From the sequence record MG049919: DNA of 50,552 nt; one strand, 5' to 3'. The stretch comes from Shigella phage vB_SflS-ISF001. The translations under genes were made by a program, and so were the position numbers. Under the pieces are notes generated by a model. It ran no database searches. It was not told the DNA's origin and worked only from the letters and a program-made list of their open reading frames with translations. Below, in pieces: positions 5,527-50,552 of this stretch; within the stretch, counting starts at the first letter, position 1; each line of letters opens with the position of its first letter.

Positions 5527-5939
5527 TTCGTTAAATCGTATATTGCCAGCTTGAATTGCTCAAATCCGTATGCAACGGCAGAGAATCCACCGCGATCCCG
5601 AACCTTTTTGAGAAACTCCCTTTGCTTATCGCTGACTGGTGACGCCTTTCCCTTGCCGGACTTATTAACCCGTTTGAGTTCGATAGCTGCGAACGGGTAA
5701 CGTGAGTTTACACCAATCAGGATAACGAAATCTGACACACCTTTAAGTAATCCAGCCTGCTCATCCCTGAGTGCTGAAGTGATTGTTTTTTCACCTTCAT
5801 TTACAGTGTGCCAAAATAGAAGGTGTGGGAAGTTGTATTTCAGCCAGGAAACGCAATCTACCTGATGAGCGTCCTCCTTTCTCGTGTCGCTAGGATCTCT
5901 CTCGTAAAATTCTAAATAATCACCTTTGTCTGTAATCAT
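5523..5939 (-). CDS. VRR-NUC domain nuclease (PD-(D/E)xK)
   Basis: GVSDFVILIG...AAIELKRVNKSGKGKASPVSDKQREFL matches VRR-NUC D/E-x-K core; start placed at ATG overlapping helicase stop (ATGA); track ORF extends to 6083. Confidence 0.7.
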   Translation of the reverse strand: MITDKGDYLEFYERDPSDTRKEDAHQVDCVSWLKYNFPHLLFWHTVNEGEKTITSALRDEQAGLLKGVSDFVILIGVNSRYPFAAIELKRVNKSGKGKASPVSDKQREFLKKVRDRGGFSAVAYGFEQFKLAIYDLTK

Positions 5940-7954
5940 TCCGGGATATCCTCCATACCAAAGTCTTTTCGTGAGATAATATCTTCTTTCTTCTGGTTGC
6001 GACGATGAGTTACGCGCACCCGGTGAGCAATATGATGTGAGTATTGCAAAATCTTGATGGCGTTCTTCATTCCGATAAAGCATCGGCGCATTTTAGGATC
6101 CGATACGTGTAGCAATACAGCTTTAGTTTTCCATAGCGTACCGCAAATCTTAGAGTCAGACTCGGGGAAGCATTTTTCATACCCCTTGAACTCATCACCA
6201 TCATCGTTAATAAGAGTGTATTTGAATATTATGCCTTTCTGGTTTTTGGTTAGCGTAACCTCAAAATTCTTTACTTCATACCAGTCATTCTTAGTGTACG
6301 CCTTACCGGATAACTTCAGGTTAGGATCGACAAGCGAAACATCACAGCAACGACAGACTCGGGCCACAACGTCATTCTCTGCACCACATCCTTTAACAAG
6401 GATTTTTCCGGTGCGCTCGTCAACCTGGTCCTCACAAATCTGAGAAGTCCAGAAATGATCGCAGCGTTCACCATCAATGACATTAACGCATCGTCGAGCA
6501 TAGAAGCTATTTACGCAACCGCATTTCGGACATGTTTTCGGATCTTTGCCGTTTTCAAAACGCTTTTGGAATTGTGCCTGCTCAAGTATCGGATCGAAAT
6601 AAAGCTGACCCAATTCATCCATCGTACCTGCGAAATCCCATACCAGATGGTCCTGCTTAACCATTCCCTCAGCAACCTGCCAGGGTATAAGCAGACGCAT
6701 ACCCCTACCCAAAAGTTGAATCAACAGTGTGAGCGACCCTATCTTGCGGAGTTTGACACTGTAATCCCAATTTGGAACGTTACCGCCAGTAGTGAGTGCC
6801 ATTACCTGAAAGGTGTATTTAATTTTCCCAGCCCTCACATCGTCCAAGATTTTCTTGCGCGTTATGGTGTCTGTGTCGCCAGTAATGATTGCATAGGTGC
6901 TTCCTGGTGGAAGCGCTGCCGCCGCCTCCTTGCAGTGACGCACCCCGGCGCATGTAATCAGTACCGCGTTACGCTCTTCAGCCTTTTTGGCAACCATTTG
7001 CATGATTCGCTGCGTAAGAGATTTATCATGAAGGATCTCATCTACCATTGCCTTCATATCTTTCTCTGTAAAGTCCTGCACTCCGTCCTCGCTCGACGCC
7101 TTGAACTTATCCAGATCGTAGTGTACGCCGTCAGTTGAATCGAATATCGTCGGAACGACAGAGCCGAACTCAATCAGATAGTTTGTGTCGATATCAGTTA
7201 CTCGCTCACGCCAGAATCCCAATGCTTTCGGATTCACTACCAGAATAGGAACTACGCCACGAAATTCAGATCCAGTCATACCAAATATTCTGAGATCGTG
7301 ACCGTGAACCTTTTTACAGCGCCGCATCATTTCCATGATTACGATCGTGTACTGACTGCGCTTAGTTCCAAGCAAAGGCTTTCCATCATTACCAATCAGG
7401 GGAATATCTCCATCCATGATGATTTTTCCCTTCTCGCCCGTCATTTGTTCCATTGTTTCCTTGCCCTCAATGGCTTGCGCAAGGTCTTCCCAATCCTCCT
7501 GGTGACATTCGTCGATCCCAATTACATGCGGGACGAAATCAGCAAGCTCATTGTCGAGGCCATTTGCAACAGTACCCTCTGAGCCTACCACGATAGGAAA
7601 ATAGCAGGACTTAATACCTAATGAGGCTGAGTATATGGAGATAGTTACCCCAAAGTTGTCAATCTCCTCGCTATCCTGATCGACAATCTCACCCTGGCGA
7701 GCCTGAACGAGCTTTTTTAAGCCCATTTTCTGACACTGCTTTACAACCATAGCATAAATGATGCTCTTAACCGCAGATACTGACGCTTTAACAAAGAATG
7801 GATGCTCGTAAATTGATAGGCGTATCGCGATCTCAGCATAAGCAACAACCTGATACGGATAAGGAACAACCTCACCGACAGTGAATTGCTCCTGAGTTCG
7901 CTTTATACAGTCCTCGCCACGTCCTACAATCAGCTTTTTAATGTTCATTGTCAC
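5936..7954 (-). CDS. SF2 (DEAD/SNF2-like) helicase with Cys-rich C-terminal zinc-ribbon region
   Basis: Motif II GIDECHQ, motif VI QLLGRGMRL, C-terminal CPKCGC...CDH and CRCC clusters; GTG start with AAAGGA RBS at 9 nt. Confidence 0.7.
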   Translation of the reverse strand: MTMNIKKLIVGRGEDCIKRTQEQFTVGEVVPYPYQVVAYAEIAIRLSIYEHPFFVKASVSAVKSIIYAMVVKQCQKMGLKKLVQARQGEIVDQDSEEIDNFGVTISIYSASLGIKSCYFPIVVGSEGTVANGLDNELADFVPHVIGIDECHQEDWEDLAQAIEGKETMEQMTGEKGKIIMDGDIPLIGNDGKPLLGTKRSQYTIVIMEMMRRCKKVHGHDLRIFGMTGSEFRGVVPILVVNPKALGFWRERVTDIDTNYLIEFGSVVPTIFDSTDGVHYDLDKFKASSEDGVQDFTEKDMKAMVDEILHDKSLTQRIMQMVAKKAEERNAVLITCAGVRHCKEAAAALPPGSTYAIITGDTDTITRKKILDDVRAGKIKYTFQVMALTTGGNVPNWDYSVKLRKIGSLTLLIQLLGRGMRLLIPWQVAEGMVKQDHLVWDFAGTMDELGQLYFDPILEQAQFQKRFENGKDPKTCPKCGCVNSFYARRCVNVIDGERCDHFWTSQICEDQVDERTGKILVKGCGAENDVVARVCRCCDVSLVDPNLKLSGKAYTKNDWYEVKNFEVTLTKNQKGIIFKYTLINDDGDEFKGYEKCFPESDSKICGTLWKTKAVLLHVSDPKMRRCFIGMKNAIKILQYSHHIAHRVRVTHRRNQKKEDIISRKDFGMEDIPE

Positions 7955-11382: not shown

Positions 11383-11412
11383 TAAAATCCCCGCATTGCG
11401 GGGATTTTTGTT
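11383..11412. terminator. bidirectional terminator between tail fibre and SSB genes
   Basis: AAAATCCCCGC-ATTG-CGGGGATTTTT. Confidence 0.65.
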
Positions 11413-11824
11413 AGAACGGGTTATCATCATCGAAAGTTGATTGAGGATTTGGCTGTGGCTGTGATTGAATTCGCTGTTGTTGCTGCGGTGCTCGTTGTTG
11501 ATTGCTTTGTCCTCGTAGACTAAATACCAACTTCGGGAAGTCAGCGGCCTGCAATGAATTGTAAGCCGTTCCATTGTGTTCACGGGATGAGATCTTCAAT
11601 GTCTCGCATGATTCTGATACGACGCGACCAACCTGGAACGCTTCACGATACCAATCAGCATGGCCAGGCTTTCCACCATCGCTAAAAAAGAATGTGTAGT
11701 TTGTGTATACTCGATCGCCATCACGAGGCTTATAGCTTTCTGCCAGTTCGATGATAAAACTAATCCCACCCTTTCGTTCAAGAATCTTAGGTTCTTTGCG
11801 GTTCACGGCAATGTTAATATGCAT
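11411..11824 (-). CDS. single-stranded DNA-binding protein
   Basis: C-terminus QSTFDDDNPF resembles the acidic SSB tail (E. coli DDDIPF); Gln/Pro-rich linker; downstream of annealing protein and exonuclease. Confidence 0.6.
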   Translation of the reverse strand: MHINIAVNRKEPKILERKGGISFIIELAESYKPRDGDRVYTNYTFFFSDGGKPGHADWYREAFQVGRVVSESCETLKISSREHNGTAYNSLQAADFPKLVFSLRGQSNQQRAPQQQQRIQSQPQPNPQSTFDDDNPF

Positions 11825-11869: not shown

Positions 11870-12517
11870 TTATTCGTAGTTGGTGATTGATTGAGATTGT
11901 ACAGGCTTCGCGCTAGTTGCTTCATCCAGTATTATCAGTCCCCGTAGCGCCGGGCGAATACCGCGAGCCTTTCCGACCTCAAACTTCGCCTTAAGTGCGT
12001 TATAATGATCCTGAATGATTGATTTGCTCGCCGTGTCACTCTGACGGTAGGCGCTGGCCCACACATCCTTCAGTGATTCTATATCTACGCACGCATCAAG
12101 TTCTTTTTTCCAGTCCTTGACAGATTTCACTGCATGCTGAGCATCGTCATCACTCTGGCTAATCCCCAGCGCTGCGGCTAATGAGTAAGGTCGAGCATAC
12201 GTCTTTGCGGAACCTACGCCTTGCGGATCGCGCTTTGCAATCGGCATCATCATGAAGAATTTGGCCCACTGCCCGGATTTGTGAATCAGCATAGTTTCAA
12301 GGTGGAAGGTTGTTTCCGTGCTTGTATCCAGCATTGATTGCAGGATCATGATATCGTTGTCGGTCAACGCAGGACTAACTCCCGCCATCATTGCGCCAAG
12401 AGTTGCGTATAAGTTTTTCAGATGAATGTTTTTAGCGTCCTTCTTTGCTATCGCGAATTTATTGCGAGCGTTAAACAGACCCGGAAGGATTTCGTTGGTT
12501 TCTGGTGATAATTGCAT
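11870..12517 (-). CDS. single-strand annealing protein (Erf-like recombinase)
   Basis: Position between exonuclease and SSB; start at internal ATG with AGGAGAAG RBS (track ORF to 12550); family assignment from memory, not verified. Confidence 0.5.
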   Translation of the reverse strand: MQLSPETNEILPGLFNARNKFAIAKKDAKNIHLKNLYATLGAMMAGVSPALTDNDIMILQSMLDTSTETTFHLETMLIHKSGQWAKFFMMMPIAKRDPQGVGSAKTYARPYSLAAALGISQSDDDAQHAVKSVKDWKKELDACVDIESLKDVWASAYRQSDTASKSIIQDHYNALKAKFEVGKARGIRPALRGLIILDEATSAKPVQSQSITNYE

Positions 12518-12573
12518 CTTAACTTCTCCTGATTGGTGTATGAGGTGCATTATAACACCTCATTAATTATTTG

Positions 12574-37344: not shown

Positions 37345-37364
37345 GTTTTAGCAATTAGTGCTAT
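37345..37364 (-). promoter_or_regulatory. early promoter cassette (20-mer + 22 bp + TATAGT in hairpin)
   Basis: Minus-strand ATAGCACTAATTGCTAAAAC; TATAGT within GGTGA/TCACC hairpin; leader CATCGACAACGAA. Confidence 0.6.
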
Positions 37365-37933
37365 TTGTTGATGAACGTAGCGGCTATGTGCAGAGCGGTA
37401 ATTTCAGGATGAACCTCAACAGAGAAGAAATCACATTCCTGATAACCGTTAACCCCGATCATATCGTCCAGGTAGATATAATCGCGACTGTCGTTATCGA
37501 AGTTGCAAACGTTGCGATGTATGCGGCATAGCTTGACCTGGATATCGCCTTCAATCATTTGCAAGATTTCGTCTTTGAATGCCCCGTCAGTAAATCCCGA
37601 AAGTAAGTGCGACTCTTTAACCTTACTTGCCGCTCGCATACCGCAGAATCGATATCCGTACTGCGGCTTGATGACTGCCTCGCTAATCCAGATCATAAAC
37701 TGGCGCGGGCTTTTACCGTTCAGGATTGACGCTGGCTCTTCTTTGTAACGACGGTCCTCATACAAGAACATGAAATACTCGTAGTTACTCCCACCCGAGA
37801 TTTCCCGAGCAATCTCAAACGTTGGTGCTTTGAAGCTGCGGAGCGCTACGTGATCGTAAGTGTCAGCCGGGATGCATCCGATAGTGTCTTTTCCCGCTCC
37901 AGGTGCGCCGTTTAAAATGATAGCTGTTTTCAT
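37361..37933 (-). CDS. P-loop nucleotide/polynucleotide kinase (dNMP kinase-like)
   Basis: Walker A GAPGAGKDT at residues 9-17, size about 190 aa. Confidence 0.6.
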   Translation of the reverse strand: MKTAIILNGAPGAGKDTIGCIPADTYDHVALRSFKAPTFEIAREISGGSNYEYFMFLYEDRRYKEEPASILNGKSPRQFMIWISEAVIKPQYGYRFCGMRAASKVKESHLLSGFTDGAFKDEILQMIEGDIQVKLCRIHRNVCNFDNDSRDYIYLDDMIGVNGYQECDFFSVEVHPEITALHIAATFINK

Positions 37934-46813: not shown

Positions 46814-46983
46814 TCGTATATATCGTTATGGGCGGCGAAACATATGAGGGTCAATATCGAGATACTGTTCACGTTGATTTTAAGAAGGCGAAGCAGTACA
46901 CAAACAGAAACAAGCAACAGATTCGCGGGGGATTTAGCATGTACGACTTAACGACGAATGTTGTGAAGGAAATTACCGAATAG
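46810..46983 (+). CDS. hypothetical small protein (57 aa)
   Basis: Not in ORF track; ATG overlapping upstream stop (ATGA), GGAGGAAAG RBS 6 nt upstream. Confidence 0.45.
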   Translation: MIVYIVMGGETYEGQYRDTVHVDFKKAKQYTNRNKQQIRGGFSMYDLTTNVVKEITE

Positions 46984-46998
46984 CACTTTTTGCTAAAC
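46979..46998 (+). promoter_or_regulatory. early promoter cassette
   Basis: ATAGCACTTTTTGCTAAACG (perfect TAGCA-N5-TGCTA); TATAGT in GGGATGACT/AGTCATCCC hairpin. Confidence 0.6.
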
Positions 46999-47054
46999 GC
47001 TCATCCGGGATGACTGGTATAGTCATCCCATCAACAGCAAGCGAGGAAAGAGTT

Positions 47055-47426
47055 ATGTTTAAGCATTTCACAGATCTGGACAACTCAGCCAGCTTAGCAA
47101 TCCTGACTGCCGAGAAAGAAAGCGAAGCGATCGAGTTCAACGAGCGCAAGACTTACAACACGCAAGAGAAGGTCGTGAGAGCACCTCTAACCGCCTCTTA
47201 TGGTGTGACTGATGCAATCGAGTGCGTTAACCTCGTAACGTGCGTGGTGGACCGTTCGGGCGTGTCTACTTTCGTCGATCCCGACACTGGAGAGAAAATC
47301 ATCCAGCTAAACAACCCATCTATGCGTACTGAGTTAGGCAATATTGCACTGTGGGGAGTTGCTTCCTATTCAATCACCGTCAACACATGTGTAGCGGATC
47401 GTGTTATGGAGGCATTGTATGAATGA
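47055..47426 (+). CDS. hypothetical protein (124 aa)
   Basis: ATG with GAGGAAAGAG RBS (track ORF from 47010); promoter cassette upstream. Confidence 0.5.
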   Translation: MFKHFTDLDNSASLAILTAEKESEAIEFNERKTYNTQEKVVRAPLTASYGVTDAIECVNLVTCVVDRSGVSTFVDPDTGEKIIQLNNPSMRTELGNIALWGVASYSITVNTCVADRVMEALYE

Positions 47427-47619
47427 TAATATTTACCGCGTAGTTGGCATCTCACGCATAACGCAATGGACTGTGATCACTTACATGGGTAGTAGCGCCA
47501 TTGAACGTACGGATGCCACCGAATTATTGAAGAACAACGAGGCAAATATGAACACGTTGCGCGTTCGACTTGAACGCCTCGAGCCTGTTATCAATGATGA
47601 AGCGCGAAAGCTATCCTGA
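47419..47619 (+). CDS. hypothetical protein (66 aa)
   Basis: ATG with GGAGG RBS overlapping upstream stop (track ORF from GTG 47401). Confidence 0.45.
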   Translation: MNDNIYRVVGISRITQWTVITYMGSSAIERTDATELLKNNEANMNTLRVRLERLEPVINDEARKLS

Positions 47620-47636
47620 CTGGTTAAGGGGGAGCA

Positions 47637-47957
47637 ATGAAACACACTTACAAAATCAGAACGAAGTACCCGAAGTTTAACGGAACCACGGATGCGGCAC
47701 TGAATAACGCCGCGGCAATTCACGAAAAAAAGATCACGGAGCCCGTGAAGGCGGTGGTAGGTAGATTCTACGGGATCAATGCCGACATTGCCGACAGCAA
47801 GCGACTGTTCAAATACGTTCCAGGTCTACCATATGGCAGGATGATTAGTATCAAGCATGAAAAAGTATTGGTTCGAATCGGATCCCTAAGCTATGATGAG
47901 TTCGATCATAAACTTTGTCTGCTGACGGCGTATCAAACTTGGGACGGTAAAAAATGA
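47637..47957 (+). CDS. hypothetical protein (106 aa)
   Basis: ORF track; AAGGGGGAG RBS. Confidence 0.5.
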   Translation: MKHTYKIRTKYPKFNGTTDAALNNAAAIHEKKITEPVKAVVGRFYGINADIADSKRLFKYVPGLPYGRMISIKHEKVLVRIGSLSYDEFDHKLCLLTAYQTWDGKK

Positions 47958-48097
47958 TTTATATTCACACTTTCTATACTGGCAAATTTAACAGCGTAAA
48001 AAATGTTCGCGTTTACGATAGCCACCAAACAGCAATGATGCAGAGAGTAGTTCTAGGCGGCACAATCAAAGAGTGCAAAGTAATTTCTGAGTACTGA
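47954..48097 (+). CDS. hypothetical small protein (47 aa)
   Basis: Not in ORF track; ATGA overlap with upstream stop; stop followed by 20-mer motif. Confidence 0.3.
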   Translation: MIYIHTFYTGKFNSVKNVRVYDSHQTAMMQRVVLGGTIKECKVISEY

Positions 48098-48116
48098 TAG
48101 CACGAATAGCTAAAGA
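48098..48116 (+). promoter_or_regulatory. early promoter cassette
   Basis: ATAGCACGAATAGCTAAAG; TATATT in GGGAGTA/TACTCCC hairpin. Confidence 0.55.
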
Positions 48117-48173
48117 CAATCAGCAGGGAGTAAGGTATATTACTCCCACACCAAACAAACAAAGGAATTAAAA

Positions 48174-48398
48174 ATGAGCATTAAAGTTGAGATTATCATC
48201 AAGCTCCTGAACGCGTTAGGCCGTGTAGTTATCAAATTGGATAAGTCTTCCGGTTTTATTTCAATGACGGTAACTAAGACTCGTAACGGTAATAACCTTA
48301 TCGGCACCACGCCAGGCTCCCGCTTAATAAATGCAACAGATGCTGATGCGCGCGCTACGCTTGAGGCTAACACAATTCACATTAATTCATGGAGTTAA
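48174..48398 (+). CDS. hypothetical protein (74 aa)
   Basis: ORF track; AAAGGAA RBS; promoter cassette upstream. Confidence 0.5.
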   Translation: MSIKVEIIIKLLNALGRVVIKLDKSSGFISMTVTKTRNGNNLIGTTPGSRLINATDADARATLEANTIHINSWS

Positions 48399-48401
48399 TT
48401 G

Positions 48402-48614
48402 ATGGAACGGGATAATTTCTCCACTCGTTATAAAGCCGCTCTTGATCGGGGGCTTAGTGCGGAATGGTGTATCAAGGTTGCATATAAAGAAATTACGCAA
48501 CACGTAGAGCTAGGGAATATGGATATGGACGCAGAAAGTGAATATAATCCCGACTCCGAGGTGCCAGACGATGATGTTGGTGATAATGACGACGACGATT
48601 ATATTCCCTGGTAA
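48402..48614 (+). CDS. small acidic protein with SSB-tail-like C-terminus (70 aa)
   Basis: ATG with GGAG RBS (track ORF from TTG 48399); C-terminus PDDDVGDNDDDDYIPW resembles SSB C-terminal DDDIPF. Confidence 0.5.
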   Translation: MERDNFSTRYKAALDRGLSAEWCIKVAYKEITQHVELGNMDMDAESEYNPDSEVPDDDVGDNDDDDYIPW

Positions 48615-48631
48615 ATAGCACGATTTGTTAA
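48615..48631 (+). promoter_or_regulatory. early promoter cassette
   Basis: ATAGCACGATTTGTTAA; TAAAGT 22 bp downstream in AAGGTCA/TGACCTT hairpin; leader AACCAATCAGGAG. Confidence 0.55.
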
Positions 48632-48694
48632 TATTGCCGTAAGGTCATTTGATAAAGTGACCTTATTCAAGATAACCAATCAGGAGTTAACGAA

Positions 48695-49057
48695 ATGAAA
48701 TCCATCAAACTGAAATGCACTTACGCAAATAAAAACTTACCATTTGAAGTAAACAACCTATACAAGGGTCGTGAGCGCTATGATGGCACTCGCGAAGTAA
48801 AATTAAAATGCGGCAAGTATTTAAAACTTGAAAAGCATGATGTTTTACAGATTCACGGATCTGATGAAATCTTCTTCGCGAAGTTCTTTGAGTGGACACG
48901 GAAGACGCTCAAGTGTACCGGGCTTGACCATCGCAACCCAATGAAAAAATCATTCAAAGTTGGCAAGCGTTACCAGGTTGAAAGCGGTCGCGCTCTCGGT
49001 GGCGTAGCTGGTTACATCTTTGATGAAGATGGTTGTCGCTCGCCCCTATTTATCTAA
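48695..49057 (+). CDS. hypothetical protein (120 aa)
   Basis: ORF track; AACCAATCAGGAG leader; promoter cassette upstream. Confidence 0.5.
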   Translation: MKSIKLKCTYANKNLPFEVNNLYKGRERYDGTREVKLKCGKYLKLEKHDVLQIHGSDEIFFAKFFEWTRKTLKCTGLDHRNPMKKSFKVGKRYQVESGRALGGVAGYIFDEDGCRSPLFI

Positions 49058-49114
49058 GAGGTTGGTTTTAGTATCGGAGACGGCACAACCTTTGAGGCCA
49101 AATACTTATAACCA

Positions 49115-49133
49115 ATAGCACTTTTTGCAAAAC
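49115..49133 (+). promoter_or_regulatory. early promoter cassette
   Basis: ATAGCACTTTTTGCAAAAC; TATCAT 22 bp downstream in GGCGGTGTA/TACACCGTC hairpin. Confidence 0.55.
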
Positions 49134-49187
49134 GCGTGTACCATTGGCGGTGTATCATTTACACCGTCAACTAAGGAGTTTATTGTG

Positions 49188-50009
49188 ATGTTTAATATTA
49201 AGCCAAAACTGTTTTACCAACAGATTATTGAGATCGCCAATAGCACTGGAGTTAATCCGGTGGCGATCGCAATTCGTGAAAACAGCTATGGTGACTCAGT
49301 TTCATTTTGGCAAGATCCGATCGATATCAATAGCGGCAACGATAAGTTTCCTCTGATTTCGTTAGGTGGCGATAACCTGGTATTCGAATATGCAAAAGCA
49401 AAGGCCGAGTCTGTACAGTTCCCTGTTTCGTCTGCGTACGCTCATTTCATTGGGTGCATCTCAGCCGCGATGCTCGGGAAGTTTTGGGTGCAATATCACG
49501 GAGAAGAGCAACCTACCGCTCTTTACATGGTAATCAGCCAGCCACCTTCAACAGGTAAATCTGCGATTAACTCCGCAGCGATTACGCCTATGCGCGCAGA
49601 GATTCAGCGACTGAATGAAGAGCGAAAAAAGGAACGTATCCGTTTAACCAGTCAGCTACGTCAGGTCGAGAAGGAAATTAAAAACGACCCGAAGGGTAAC
49701 ACGACGGCGGCGCTGTACGAGGACAAAGAAAAACTGGAAGAAAAGATCAAGAAGATGGCTGATATTGTTTTCGCGGTATCAGATCCTACACCTGAAGGTC
49801 TTGCGAAGGTGGCGGCTGTTCAAGGTCACTTCTCAGTAATCTCTGATGAGGCGACAGCAATCAATACATTGCTCGGACTGAATTATGGCGGTTCTGATAA
49901 GAAATCAAACAGCGAACTTATCCTTAAGGCGTGGGATAAAAACCATATGGAGGTCGCGCGTTCAAACCAAGACAACAACTTACTTCTATCCCCGAACGGT
50001 TCGATCTAG
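49188..50009 (+). CDS. hypothetical protein with degenerate P-loop-like segment
   Basis: ATG with AAGGAG RBS (track ORF from 49125); QPPSTGKSA resembles a degenerate Walker A; coiled-coil Lys/Glu-rich middle. Confidence 0.5.
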   Translation: MFNIKPKLFYQQIIEIANSTGVNPVAIAIRENSYGDSVSFWQDPIDINSGNDKFPLISLGGDNLVFEYAKAKAESVQFPVSSAYAHFIGCISAAMLGKFWVQYHGEEQPTALYMVISQPPSTGKSAINSAAITPMRAEIQRLNEERKKERIRLTSQLRQVEKEIKNDPKGNTTAALYEDKEKLEEKIKKMADIVFAVSDPTPEGLAKVAAVQGHFSVISDEATAINTLLGLNYGGSDKKSNSELILKAWDKNHMEVARSNQDNNLLLSPNGSI

Positions 50010-50020
50010 ACCATTGCGCA

Positions 50021-50552
50021 GGATGAAACAATGTTGGGTATCATGGACGCAGGCCTAAGAGGCATCGGCGTATCTGAGCGTTTCCTTTTAGTTCGTGAGG
50101 AACCACTTTTAGGTACTCGTATTCTTTGTGATGAAAATGGTGATGCGCTGTTTAAGGAAGTCGATCGAGGATTGGTGAGTAAATATTATCGACTCGTACA
50201 CAACATCATGAAAGAGGATAACGTTGTTTTATCTGTAAGCCGTAATGCTATGCGTGAATTAAACCTTGCGCGTCAGGCGATGGAACCGGATTTCGCCGCA
50301 GGTGGGAAATACTCTCACTCAATGCTACGCGGTCATCTCAGCAAGTTCGATAAGCACGCCTTGCGTATTGCTTCAGTTCTCCTAACGATAATGAGTTCGA
50401 GGAGTGAATCACCGAACCGTTCCAACCGTGAGATTGACCATGGAACAATGCAGGAAGCAAAAACCATCTTTAATGAGCTTTCCAGGACTTATCTGTCGCT
50501 TAAAAGCGCTTCCGGGTATGCTGGTGATGATGCTGTATCTCGTAAGCTGATT
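50021..50552 (+). CDS. hypothetical protein, 5' fragment (runs off window end)
   Basis: ATG at 50021, 11 nt after upstream TAG; open to window end. Confidence 0.4.

Follow-up and report, generated by a model that had tools for sequence, protein, structure and literature searches.

Background

The C-terminal tip of SSB, the protein that binds single-stranded DNA, serves bacterial genome maintenance as its central docking signal, has about 17–20 partner enzymes, and is also an antibiotic target. Here we examine a small gene of Shigella phage vB_SflS-ISF001, HOS16_gp76 (hereafter gp76), whose product ends in an acidic sequence, terminated by an aromatic residue, that resembles this tip (SSB-Ct) and is very probably, judging from its conservation, a working docking motif. 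The source record (MG049919) is the complete genome of this T1-like member of the genus Tunavirus, family Drexlerviridae, and the whole of its 50,552 bp is referred to below as the window.

In the host protein the motif reads DDDIPF (PMC5872125) or, as an octapeptide, DFDDDIPF (PMC10143822). Proteins that read the tip accommodate its last Phe in a hydrophobic pocket, bind the alpha-carboxylate through a basic residue and receive the Asp residues on a basic ridge (PMC3159472). For the tetrapeptide DIPF by itself, binding to ExoI and RecO is at 45–100 µM as compared with about 4.5 µM for the octapeptide, replacement of Ile by Leu improves the binding of SSB-Ct peptides to ExoI, and bulkier C-terminal aromatics are tolerated by, or are better for, ExoI and RecO, although the data consulted did not include Trp (PMC10143822).

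Phage annealases also read SSB tails (PMC5928155, PMC6393309), and the tip of the phage HK620 SSB, NDYPPF, is functional and is required for binding its annealase (PMC5928155). The HK620 SSB and Sak4, and the C-terminal domain of lambda Red-beta and the host SSB-Ct, thus provide examples of phage recombination proteins reading SSB-type tips, and they show that a D-Y-x-P-aromatic end works. In phage T7 the helicase-primase gp4 and the SSB gp2.5 both carry acidic, Phe-ending tails that dock on the same basic patch of the T7 DNA polymerase, and PDB entry 6P7E holds the gp4-tail peptide DTDF (cited in bioRxiv 10.1101/2025.03.07.642097).

The gp76 Gene and Its Product

Translation of positions 48402–48614 on the plus strand yields an intact frame of 70 codons plus a stop codon, which lies inside those coordinates, and the 70-aa product, MERDNFSTRYKAALDRGLSAEWCIKVAYKEITQHVELGNMDMDAESEYNPDSEVPDDDVGDNDDDDYIPW, does end in DDDDYIPW as the original prediction from the DNA had stated. 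The start codon is well supported because a Shine-Dalgarno sequence GGAG, read from the sequence at 48391–48394 (plus strand), lies 7 nt 5' of the ATG and inside the last codons of the preceding gene, gp75, and because all homologs in an alignment of close homologs start with ME[QR]DNF. The open reading frame (ORF) shows 100% identity to HOS16_gp76 of vB_SflS-ISF001 and matches family phrog_9085 over its full length (residues 1–70, profile of 69 positions, E = 1e-40), with a second match, to phrog_9323, that is limited to residues 1–48. It is a direct ortholog of T1 ST6 (YP_003939.1), with 70% identity across 70 aa in a tblastn search. Both PHROG families and ST6 itself are annotated as 'hypothetical protein' and the conserved tip is absent from the annotation.

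Comparison of the gp76 C-terminus with the SSB-Ct (..DFDDDIPF-COOH) reveals several features of the latter. Both tips lie at the extreme C-terminus of a disordered, acidic segment, and the alpha-carboxylate of gp76 is free, since the stop codon directly follows Trp70. The penultimate Pro, preceded at -2 by a hydrophobic Ile or Leu, is present as I68-P69, and disorder of the linker is indicated both by the AlphaFold2 (AF2) prediction and by the variability of the linker among homologs. An Ile-Pro-aromatic-COOH end with Asp residues upstream also characterises the whole clade to which the window belongs. The acidic run before the tip reads D-D-D-D-Y, with acidic residues at -4 to -7 and Tyr at -3; it is a property of this clade and not of the family as a whole, other clades carrying a four-cysteine knuckle in its place. 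The C-terminal Phe is replaced by Trp in the window and in all Tunavirinae. As regards the anchor residues, an Ile-Pro-aromatic-COOH end following Asp residues, the proposed likeness to the SSB tip is real; the Trp in place of Phe and the Tyr at -3 are differences. The carriers also differ: gp76 is a 70-aa helical protein lacking an OB fold and any detectable DNA-binding domain.

Conservation of the C-Terminal Tip

The original prediction had been made to depend on conservation of the C-terminus among orthologs, and such conservation was found. The DYIPW end is invariant in all 56 close homologs, which derive from the Tunavirinae, and the acidic stretch preceding it varies in both sequence and length. 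For a wider census, a profile search of a collection clustered at 90% identity yielded 145 full-length members from about ten genera of the Drexlerviridae, and 143 of these clusters end in a hydrophobic (I/F/L/M)-Pro-(Phe/Trp)-COOH sequence, with one extra Trp in five clusters. Pro occupies -1 in 143 of the 145 and -2 is filled by Ile (82 clusters), Phe (58) or Leu (3), with Phe (85 clusters) or Trp (59) as the last residue. Moreover, an exhaustive HMMER search of 1.84 billion cluster representatives (50% identity) gave 27 matches, and 18 of the 19 full-length small proteins among them carry the tip. Some family members exhibit tails that are strikingly SSB-like, including ..FDFDQLPF, ..KFDDGIPF and ..DFDNNHLPF.

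At nine further loci, drawn from some eight additional genera (Webervirus, Tlsvirus, Vilniusvirus, Sertoctavirus, Warwickvirus, Kyungwonvirus, Sauletekiovirus and LF82-11), the N-terminal segment of about 46 residues is shared and the middle of the protein is wholly different, usually carrying CxC-x6-7-CxxC, and all nine proteins are tipped, ending in CIPF, CFPF, EIPF, CMPF, CIPFW or DYIPW. Among family members outside the Tunavirinae the majority, amounting to 81 of the 145 clusters, have the four cysteines (CxC-x6-7-CxxC) in place of the acidic linker and directly before IPF or FPF, and this cluster is a probable Zn knuckle. The linker was exchanged, an acidic run in Tunavirus as against four cysteines elsewhere, while the tip persisted.

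The constraint on the tip acts on the protein, because between genera both its codons and the DNA following the stop codon differ: all four codons are in use for Pro, alternate codons serve for Ile and Phe, and the sequences past the stop are unalike. On the same grounds, a nucleotide-level element as the cause of the conservation was rejected. Within the Tunavirinae, for 15 loci gathered with the alignment of close homologs, the ratio of nonsynonymous to synonymous substitution rates (dN/dS) was 0.06 for the tip, a value derived from few sites, as compared with 0.17 in the linker and 0.08 in the N-terminal module.

Such an end is also rare. Among 307 six-frame ORFs of at least 40 aa in the window, a single one, gp76, ends in [ILMVFYC]-P-[FWY]. 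In six-frame scans of the window and of the phages ZX2 and F61, ends of the form P-[FW] were confined to the SSB and the gp76-like protein, and in phage NBD2 they occurred in the SSB, the gp76-like protein, the deoxynucleoside monophosphate (dNMP) kinase gp15 and one spurious ORF. This rarity, taken together with the conservation across the family, implies more than a chance resemblance.

The classes differ in the charge that precedes the tip. For proteins ending in IPW the mean charge of the last 12 residues is -5.2, and for the FPF class it is about 0, with Arg at -4 (C-x-R-C-FPF). In most clades outside Tunavirus no acidic run adjoins the tip, so that the family overall copies only the last three residues of SSB.

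A Second Protein Family Carrying the Tip

The NBD2 protein gp15, a dNMP-kinase-like protein of family phrog_139 encoded at positions 5708–6325 of the NBD2 sequence examined, ends in ..WSDDIPW. Among the matches listed for this family, 67 of 120 clusters have a 12–15-residue extension ending in [D/E][D/E]IPW, with examples that include ADDIPW, DDDIPW and even ADYIPW, and always with Trp. The remaining 53 of the 120 listed clusters are shorter and lack the tip, and they include the copy in the window, a P-loop protein of 190 aa at 37361–37933 on the minus strand (phrog_139, E = 1e-33). From these distributions, the acidic IPW-COOH tip looks like a portable docking label present on at least two unrelated non-SSB phage families. 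Its occurrence on the kinase points to recruitment rather than to a decoy and, possibly, to SSB-tip-type targeting of an enzyme of nucleotide metabolism. A reusable motif module of this kind would physically link nucleotide supply to replication in these phages.

The Phage SSB and Annealase

The window encodes an SSB of 137 aa at 11411–11824 (phrog_44 SSB, E = 3e-16). Its FDDDNPF end, to which the original prediction had drawn attention, is present in this record; the gene lies on the minus strand, which had not been stated, and the Asn is private to the record. The tip codons are GAT AAC in the window as against GAT ATC in phages ISF002 and phiD2-2, a private T>A change near 11420. The SSBs of ISF002, phiD2-2, NBD2, ZX2 and F61, from five genera, end in FDDDIPF or (M)DFDDDIPF and therefore match the host hexapeptide DDDIPF. 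The likeness between the tips of gp76 and SSB is thereby closer than the record suggests, because the phage SSB of this lineage really ends in DDDIPF like that of the host, and in T1-like phages the SSB reproduces the interaction motif of the host exactly. The gp76-like tip varies by clade against a constant SSB tip (DDDIPF), with no co-variation between the two.

No DNA polymerase is annotated in the NBD2, ZX2 or F61 genomes, which were the annotated genomes examined, and this fits the replication of T1 with the host Pol III. The lack of an annotated phage DNA polymerase would explain why the phage SSB keeps the tip of the host. Adjoining the SSB gene is that of an ERF-family single-strand annealing protein at 11870–12550 on the minus strand (PF04404, E = 7e-18; phrog_155) and, by analogy with the annealases described above, it constitutes a candidate reader of SSB-type tips.

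Architecture of gp76

Three segments can be distinguished in the protein. The N-terminal helical module, residues 1–46 (48402–48539, plus strand), was delimited from the alignments, the AF2 models and the dN/dS values. It carries the family signature ..F..R...A..AGLN.E...KVAY.E.TL.EALGDMDMD.ES. and, according to the alignments, the invariant residues A13, G17, L18, V26, A27, L37, G38, M40 and E45; ..ALGDMDMDxES is the best-conserved segment of the family outside the helices. A variable acidic linker, EYNPDSEVPDDDVGDNDDD, extends over residues 47–65 (48540–48596, plus strand); it is predicted to be disordered and is the most variable region, with insertions and deletions. The tip, D-Y-I-P-W-COOH, comprises residues 66–70 (48597–48611, plus strand) and is a putative docking peg of the SSB-Ct type.

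AF2 predicted helices at residues 6–15 and 20–32, with two to three short helices overall within residues 6–37 at values of 70–82 for the predicted local distance difference test (pLDDT), and a tail lacking secondary structure from about residue 47, where the pLDDT was about 50. In two runs the mean pLDDT was 65 (shallow alignment) and 63 (deeper alignment), a moderate confidence that suffices for a helical N-module with a loose tail and is insufficient for assigning a fold. The predicted layout, with a helical N-module, a floppy linker and a C-terminal peg, resembles the logic of SSB. Members of the ST6 family are highly acidic (net charge -9 to -16, isoelectric point about 4), and gp76 itself has a net charge of -14.

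No Pfam, NCBIfam or PADLOC match was obtained for gp76, nor for the neighbouring gp75 and gp77, and as a test for anti-defence functions this result is weak since the PADLOC models represent defence. A profile search of PDB with the gp76 family gave, as best match, a designed helical repeat (E = 0.12), and a Foldseek comparison of gp76 with PDB gave a UBA domain (E = 5.6), neither of which is meaningful. Assignment of gp76 to the SSB family of OB-fold proteins was rejected, given the absence of a Pfam or NCBIfam match and the AF2 models, which show short helices and no beta barrel.

In three longer metagenomic proteins (162–217 aa) the ST6 N-module is internal and the tip is absent, and one of these has a CPAC..CPAC zinc-ribbon-like C-terminus. 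The N-module is therefore a self-contained domain, open to combination with other parts. A Tunavirus homolog of gp76 in IMGVR_UViG_2974611450 (977–1183) carries an in-frame stop at codon 44 (MDMD*ESEY), and it is either a pseudogene or the result of a sequence error.

Gene Neighbourhood

The gp76 gene is one of a group of small ORFs that precede a helicase gene. Immediately upstream of gp76 lies gp75 (74 aa; 48174–48398, plus strand; phrog_4344, E = 4e-33), which is a conserved partner: it occurs just upstream of the gp76-like gene, either adjacent or one ORF away, at eight of the nine loci from other genera and also on a metagenomic contig that carries a distant family member. The gp75-gp76 pair of phage SA12KD is flanked on both sides by predicted rho-independent terminators. 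Directly 3' of gp76 in the window there is a 12-bp stem-loop at 48639–48666 (plus strand), and the region 48612–48700 folds at -21.7 kcal/mol (z = -4.7). SA12KD has an annotated rho-independent terminator at the matching place, and the folding suggests that the stem-loop is either a terminator-like or an RNA-stabilising hairpin. A simple promoter and terminator scan of 45.5–50.5 kb did not call the hairpin, and its counts were at or below those expected from shuffled sequence. Probably, gp75 and gp76 constitute a two-gene cassette, with gp75 as a candidate partner of gp76.

Downstream, gp77 (120 aa; 48695–49057, plus strand; phrog_2684, with DUF7244 below threshold) is also a conserved neighbour, and it is followed by the DUF3987 helicase gene (PF13148, E = 1e-22; plus strand), which spans the ends of the record, running from 49125 to 50552 and continuing at 1–201. 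A tblastn search with the helicase of phage LeonhardEuler matched 49185–50552 plus 1–201. The listed helicase ORF amounts to only 294 aa, as compared with 523 aa in relatives, because the gene is interrupted by an in-frame TAG at 50007–50009 that is exclusive to this record and is TGC in ISF002.

The order gp75 - gp76 - gp77 - DUF3987 helicase is kept across genera and recurs on the metagenomic contig mentioned above. Outside Tunavirus an inserted C5-methyltransferase gene follows the gp76-like gene; in six genera a Dcm-like C5 cytosine methyltransferase is encoded either directly 3' of it or one small ORF away, and in phage tunzivis the annotated coding sequences of the gp76-like protein and the methyltransferase overlap. 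In Tunavirus, the methyltransferase gene lies instead about 1.8 kb upstream of gp76. The literature searched contained no expression data, and no T1 early-gene timing, for gp76 or ST6.

Quality of the ISF001 Sequence

Comparison of the window with its nearest relative, ISF002, revealed 151 mismatches in 3.2 kb (46900–50110), 62% of which are complement-type transversions (A<->T, G<->C) that often occur in runs, such as TTT>AAA at 48432–48434 and GCC>CGG at 48447–48449. When the differences were polarised with five outgroups, 118 changes proved to be private to the window, 73 of them complement-type, as compared with three private changes in ISF002. For other Tunavirus genomes the complement-type share is 7–16%. 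The ten differences between gp76 and its ISF002 counterpart are all non-synonymous and private, and seven of them, W7S, F11K, A16R, L33Q, D34H, E35V and A36E, fall at family-conserved positions of the N-module. The Asn of the SSB tip and the helicase TAG at 50007–50009 are private changes of a similar kind. Given the abnormal substitution spectrum and the private changes at conserved positions, the deposited ISF001 sequence probably contains errors that arose as sequencing or assembly artefacts, and the true gp76 is likely to be ISF002-like. The gp76 tip is unaffected by these abnormal changes.

Proposed Function and Alternative Explanations

Of the functions considered, we tentatively, and only slightly, favour over a decoy one in which gp76 is a tether addressed by its tip to the replication or recombination machinery, and our confidence in it falls somewhat short of even. 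The free C-terminus of gp76 would plug into the site by which SSB-interacting proteins read the SSB tip, its last aromatic residue being taken by a hydrophobic pocket and its alpha-carboxylate by a basic residue, and in the Tunavirus clade the run of Asp residues would lie on the adjacent basic ridge. At the other end, the conserved N-module would hold a specific partner, probably phage encoded, for which the conserved neighbours gp75, gp77 and the DUF3987 helicase come into consideration. Competition with SSB for the reader site would follow automatically from such tethering. The best-supported step, by analogy with known readers, would be the docking of the Ile-Pro-Trp carboxylate in a pocket of the SSB-Ct type; that the reader is such a pocket, which reader it is and whether the net effect is recruitment or blockade are matters of inference. 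The tether, or address label, is favoured because the N-module is under strong constraint, because the gene stays together with the helicase block and because the tip also delivers an enzyme. Competition with the SSB interactome, which had been proposed originally, is plausible, and the support for recruitment or tethering is no weaker. An extended version, in which SSB, the dNMP-kinase-like enzyme and the ST6 protein share one reader pocket at the fork, with ST6 acting as a replisome organiser that couples the DUF3987 helicase (or gp75 or gp77), bound by its N-module, to a host reader bound by its tip (for example DnaG or the chi subunit of the Pol III clamp loader) and so to the hijacked host polymerase, seems improbable.

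Several observations weigh against tethering through an SSB-Ct pocket. The N-module yielded no detectable homolog of known function in Pfam, NCBIfam, PADLOC, PDB or Foldseek searches, so that the naming of a 'second partner' for it is guesswork based on gene order. In gp76 itself the last residue is Trp and Tyr replaces Asp at -3, and in the Webervirus members, which end in IPFW, the added Trp would displace the Phe carboxylate; the codons there, TTC TGG TGA, are compatible with a read-through extension of one codon. The largest class outside Tunavirus has no acidic run before the tip and, since C-x-R-C with Arg at -4 precedes it, the acidic share of SSB-Ct affinity, about 10–20-fold (PMC10143822), is missing in this FPF class. 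Each clade has fixed its own variant of the tip despite the constancy of the host and phage SSB tips, a pattern for which co-evolution with a phage partner would be at least as good an account as an invariant host pocket. Finally, the in-frame stop in the metagenomic Tunavirus homolog hints that the gene may be dispensable.

The alternatives differ mainly in what the tip is presumed to meet. An abundant gp76 could act purely as a decoy or inhibitor, its tip saturating the SSB-Ct pockets of one or several host enzymes, for example ExoI, RecJ, RecQ, RecG, PriA or Ung, and thereby blocking their recruitment to SSB-coated phage single-stranded DNA (ssDNA), and with the N-module contributing merely to solubility, oligomerisation or extra target affinity; this explanation we consider rather unlikely. 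All of the evidence for conservation of the tip applies to it equally, and the protein, encoded among small ORFs of unknown function, is tiny, very acidic and without an enzymatic domain. A decoy would also have a use, because a phage SSB with the host tip would otherwise draw ExoI to the 3' tails that are needed for ERF annealing; small molecules and peptides bound in SSB-Ct pockets block such interactions (PMC3594151, PMC10143822), and the raised ExoI affinity of bulkier C-terminal aromatics would help a monovalent decoy (PMC10143822). However, a monovalent tip must outcompete many tetrameric host and phage SSB tails, a simple decoy has no need of a strongly conserved N-module with its exposed ALGDMDMDxES motif, and the tip on the dNMP kinase is hard to read in this way. 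Moreover, a non-selective decoy would harm a phage that uses host replication proteins and provides its own SSB with the host tip. Similarly doubtful is docking on a phage-specific reader that is not of the SSB-Ct type, such as gp75, gp77, the DUF3987 helicase or the C5-methyltransferase, or inclusion of the tip in the Zn-knuckle fold, the likeness to SSB being then convergent in the Tunavirus clade or coincidental. The clade-fixed variants YIPW, CFPF, CIPF, EIPF and IPFW, as against a constant SSB tip, speak for such a partner, as do the position of the tip directly after CxxC and its non-acidic context in most clades, the IPFW of Webervirus, the conserved and hairpin-bracketed gp75-gp76 pair, and the methyltransferase gene lying directly, or one small ORF, downstream in six genera. 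Against it, in every genome examined such an end is otherwise found, among annotated proteins, solely on the SSB and, in NBD2, on a dNMP kinase whose acidic DDIPW tip is clearly SSB-like, several tails of the family approach the SSB sequence very closely, as listed above, and AF2 leaves the tail undocked on the N-module. Intramolecular docking of the gp76 tail is likewise unsupported by AF2, at low confidence.

Mimicry of other short motifs was rejected on motif geometry and is very improbable. The beta-clamp-binding motif is QL[S/D]LF or QLxLxL, the form compared here being QL[SD]LF, and the conserved C-terminal peptide of FtsZ, DYLDIPAFLRKQ, reads D-Y-L-D-I-P-A-F-L-R-K-Q, that is, I-P-x-F-L followed by a basic helix. 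Superficially the motifs are alike, in that D-Y-..-I-P-.-F of FtsZ recalls D-Y-I-P-W and one family member ends in QLPF. That member is the only one with Gln before the tip, which the other 144 of the 145 lack, and Pro at -1 in 143 of 145 misfits the clamp motif; the FtsZ peptide, in turn, needs residues past its Phe (the FLRK helix) as well as one between Pro and Phe, whereas the ST6 family stops at the aromatic. Least probable of all is a chance resemblance of a functionless tail. The shortness of the motif and the frequency of acidic low-complexity tails speak for it, but retention of the tip by 143 of 145 clusters, through linker replacement and synonymous codon turnover, and its occurrence in one of 307 window ORFs effectively refute this explanation.

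Significance and Comparison with Known Systems

For eukaryotic viruses, mimicry of short linear motifs of the host has been well documented. No viral mimicry of the bacterial SSB hub was described in the literature searched, and neither was a free-standing SSB-Ct mimic or decoy nor the ST6 protein family, although absence there is not proof. In the extended, improbable version outlined above, the phage itself would encode a natural mimic of a bacterial hub protein, based on a short linear motif. A natural non-SSB carrier of the tip would show how a phage without an annotated polymerase manipulates, or plugs into, the replisome and repair network of its host. It would also provide a genetically encoded probe or inhibitor of SSB-partner interactions, with the variants IPW, LPF and FPF serving to map the tolerance of the pocket. 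Moreover, a testable function would be assigned to a 'hypothetical protein' that hundreds of T1-like phages encode, many candidates for therapy against Klebsiella, E. coli, Shigella and Salmonella among them.

Among the described systems, T7 gp4 provides the precedent of a non-SSB phage protein with an SSB-type acidic, aromatic-ended tail that shares the docking site of an SSB. The T7 carrier is a large enzyme and its reader is the phage polymerase, whereas the gp76 carrier is tiny and no polymerase is annotated in the T1-like genomes examined; the motifs also differ, D[T/D]DF in T7 as against the bacterial-type IP[F/W] in gp76. In the HK620 and lambda systems the tips belong to true SSBs bound to ssDNA, whereas gp76 has no SSB domain and its tip would be either free or tethered. 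In proposed action there is a parallel with the synthetic SSB-Ct mimetic peptides and inhibitors, which occupy the IPF pocket and for which Leu at -2 is tolerated or better (PMC10143822, PMC3594151); these are man-made, and gp76 is natural and genetically encoded. Set beside these systems, gp76 and its relatives, as judged from their sequences, place a hub motif that is already known on a carrier that is new, is not an SSB and has been conserved throughout a phage family.

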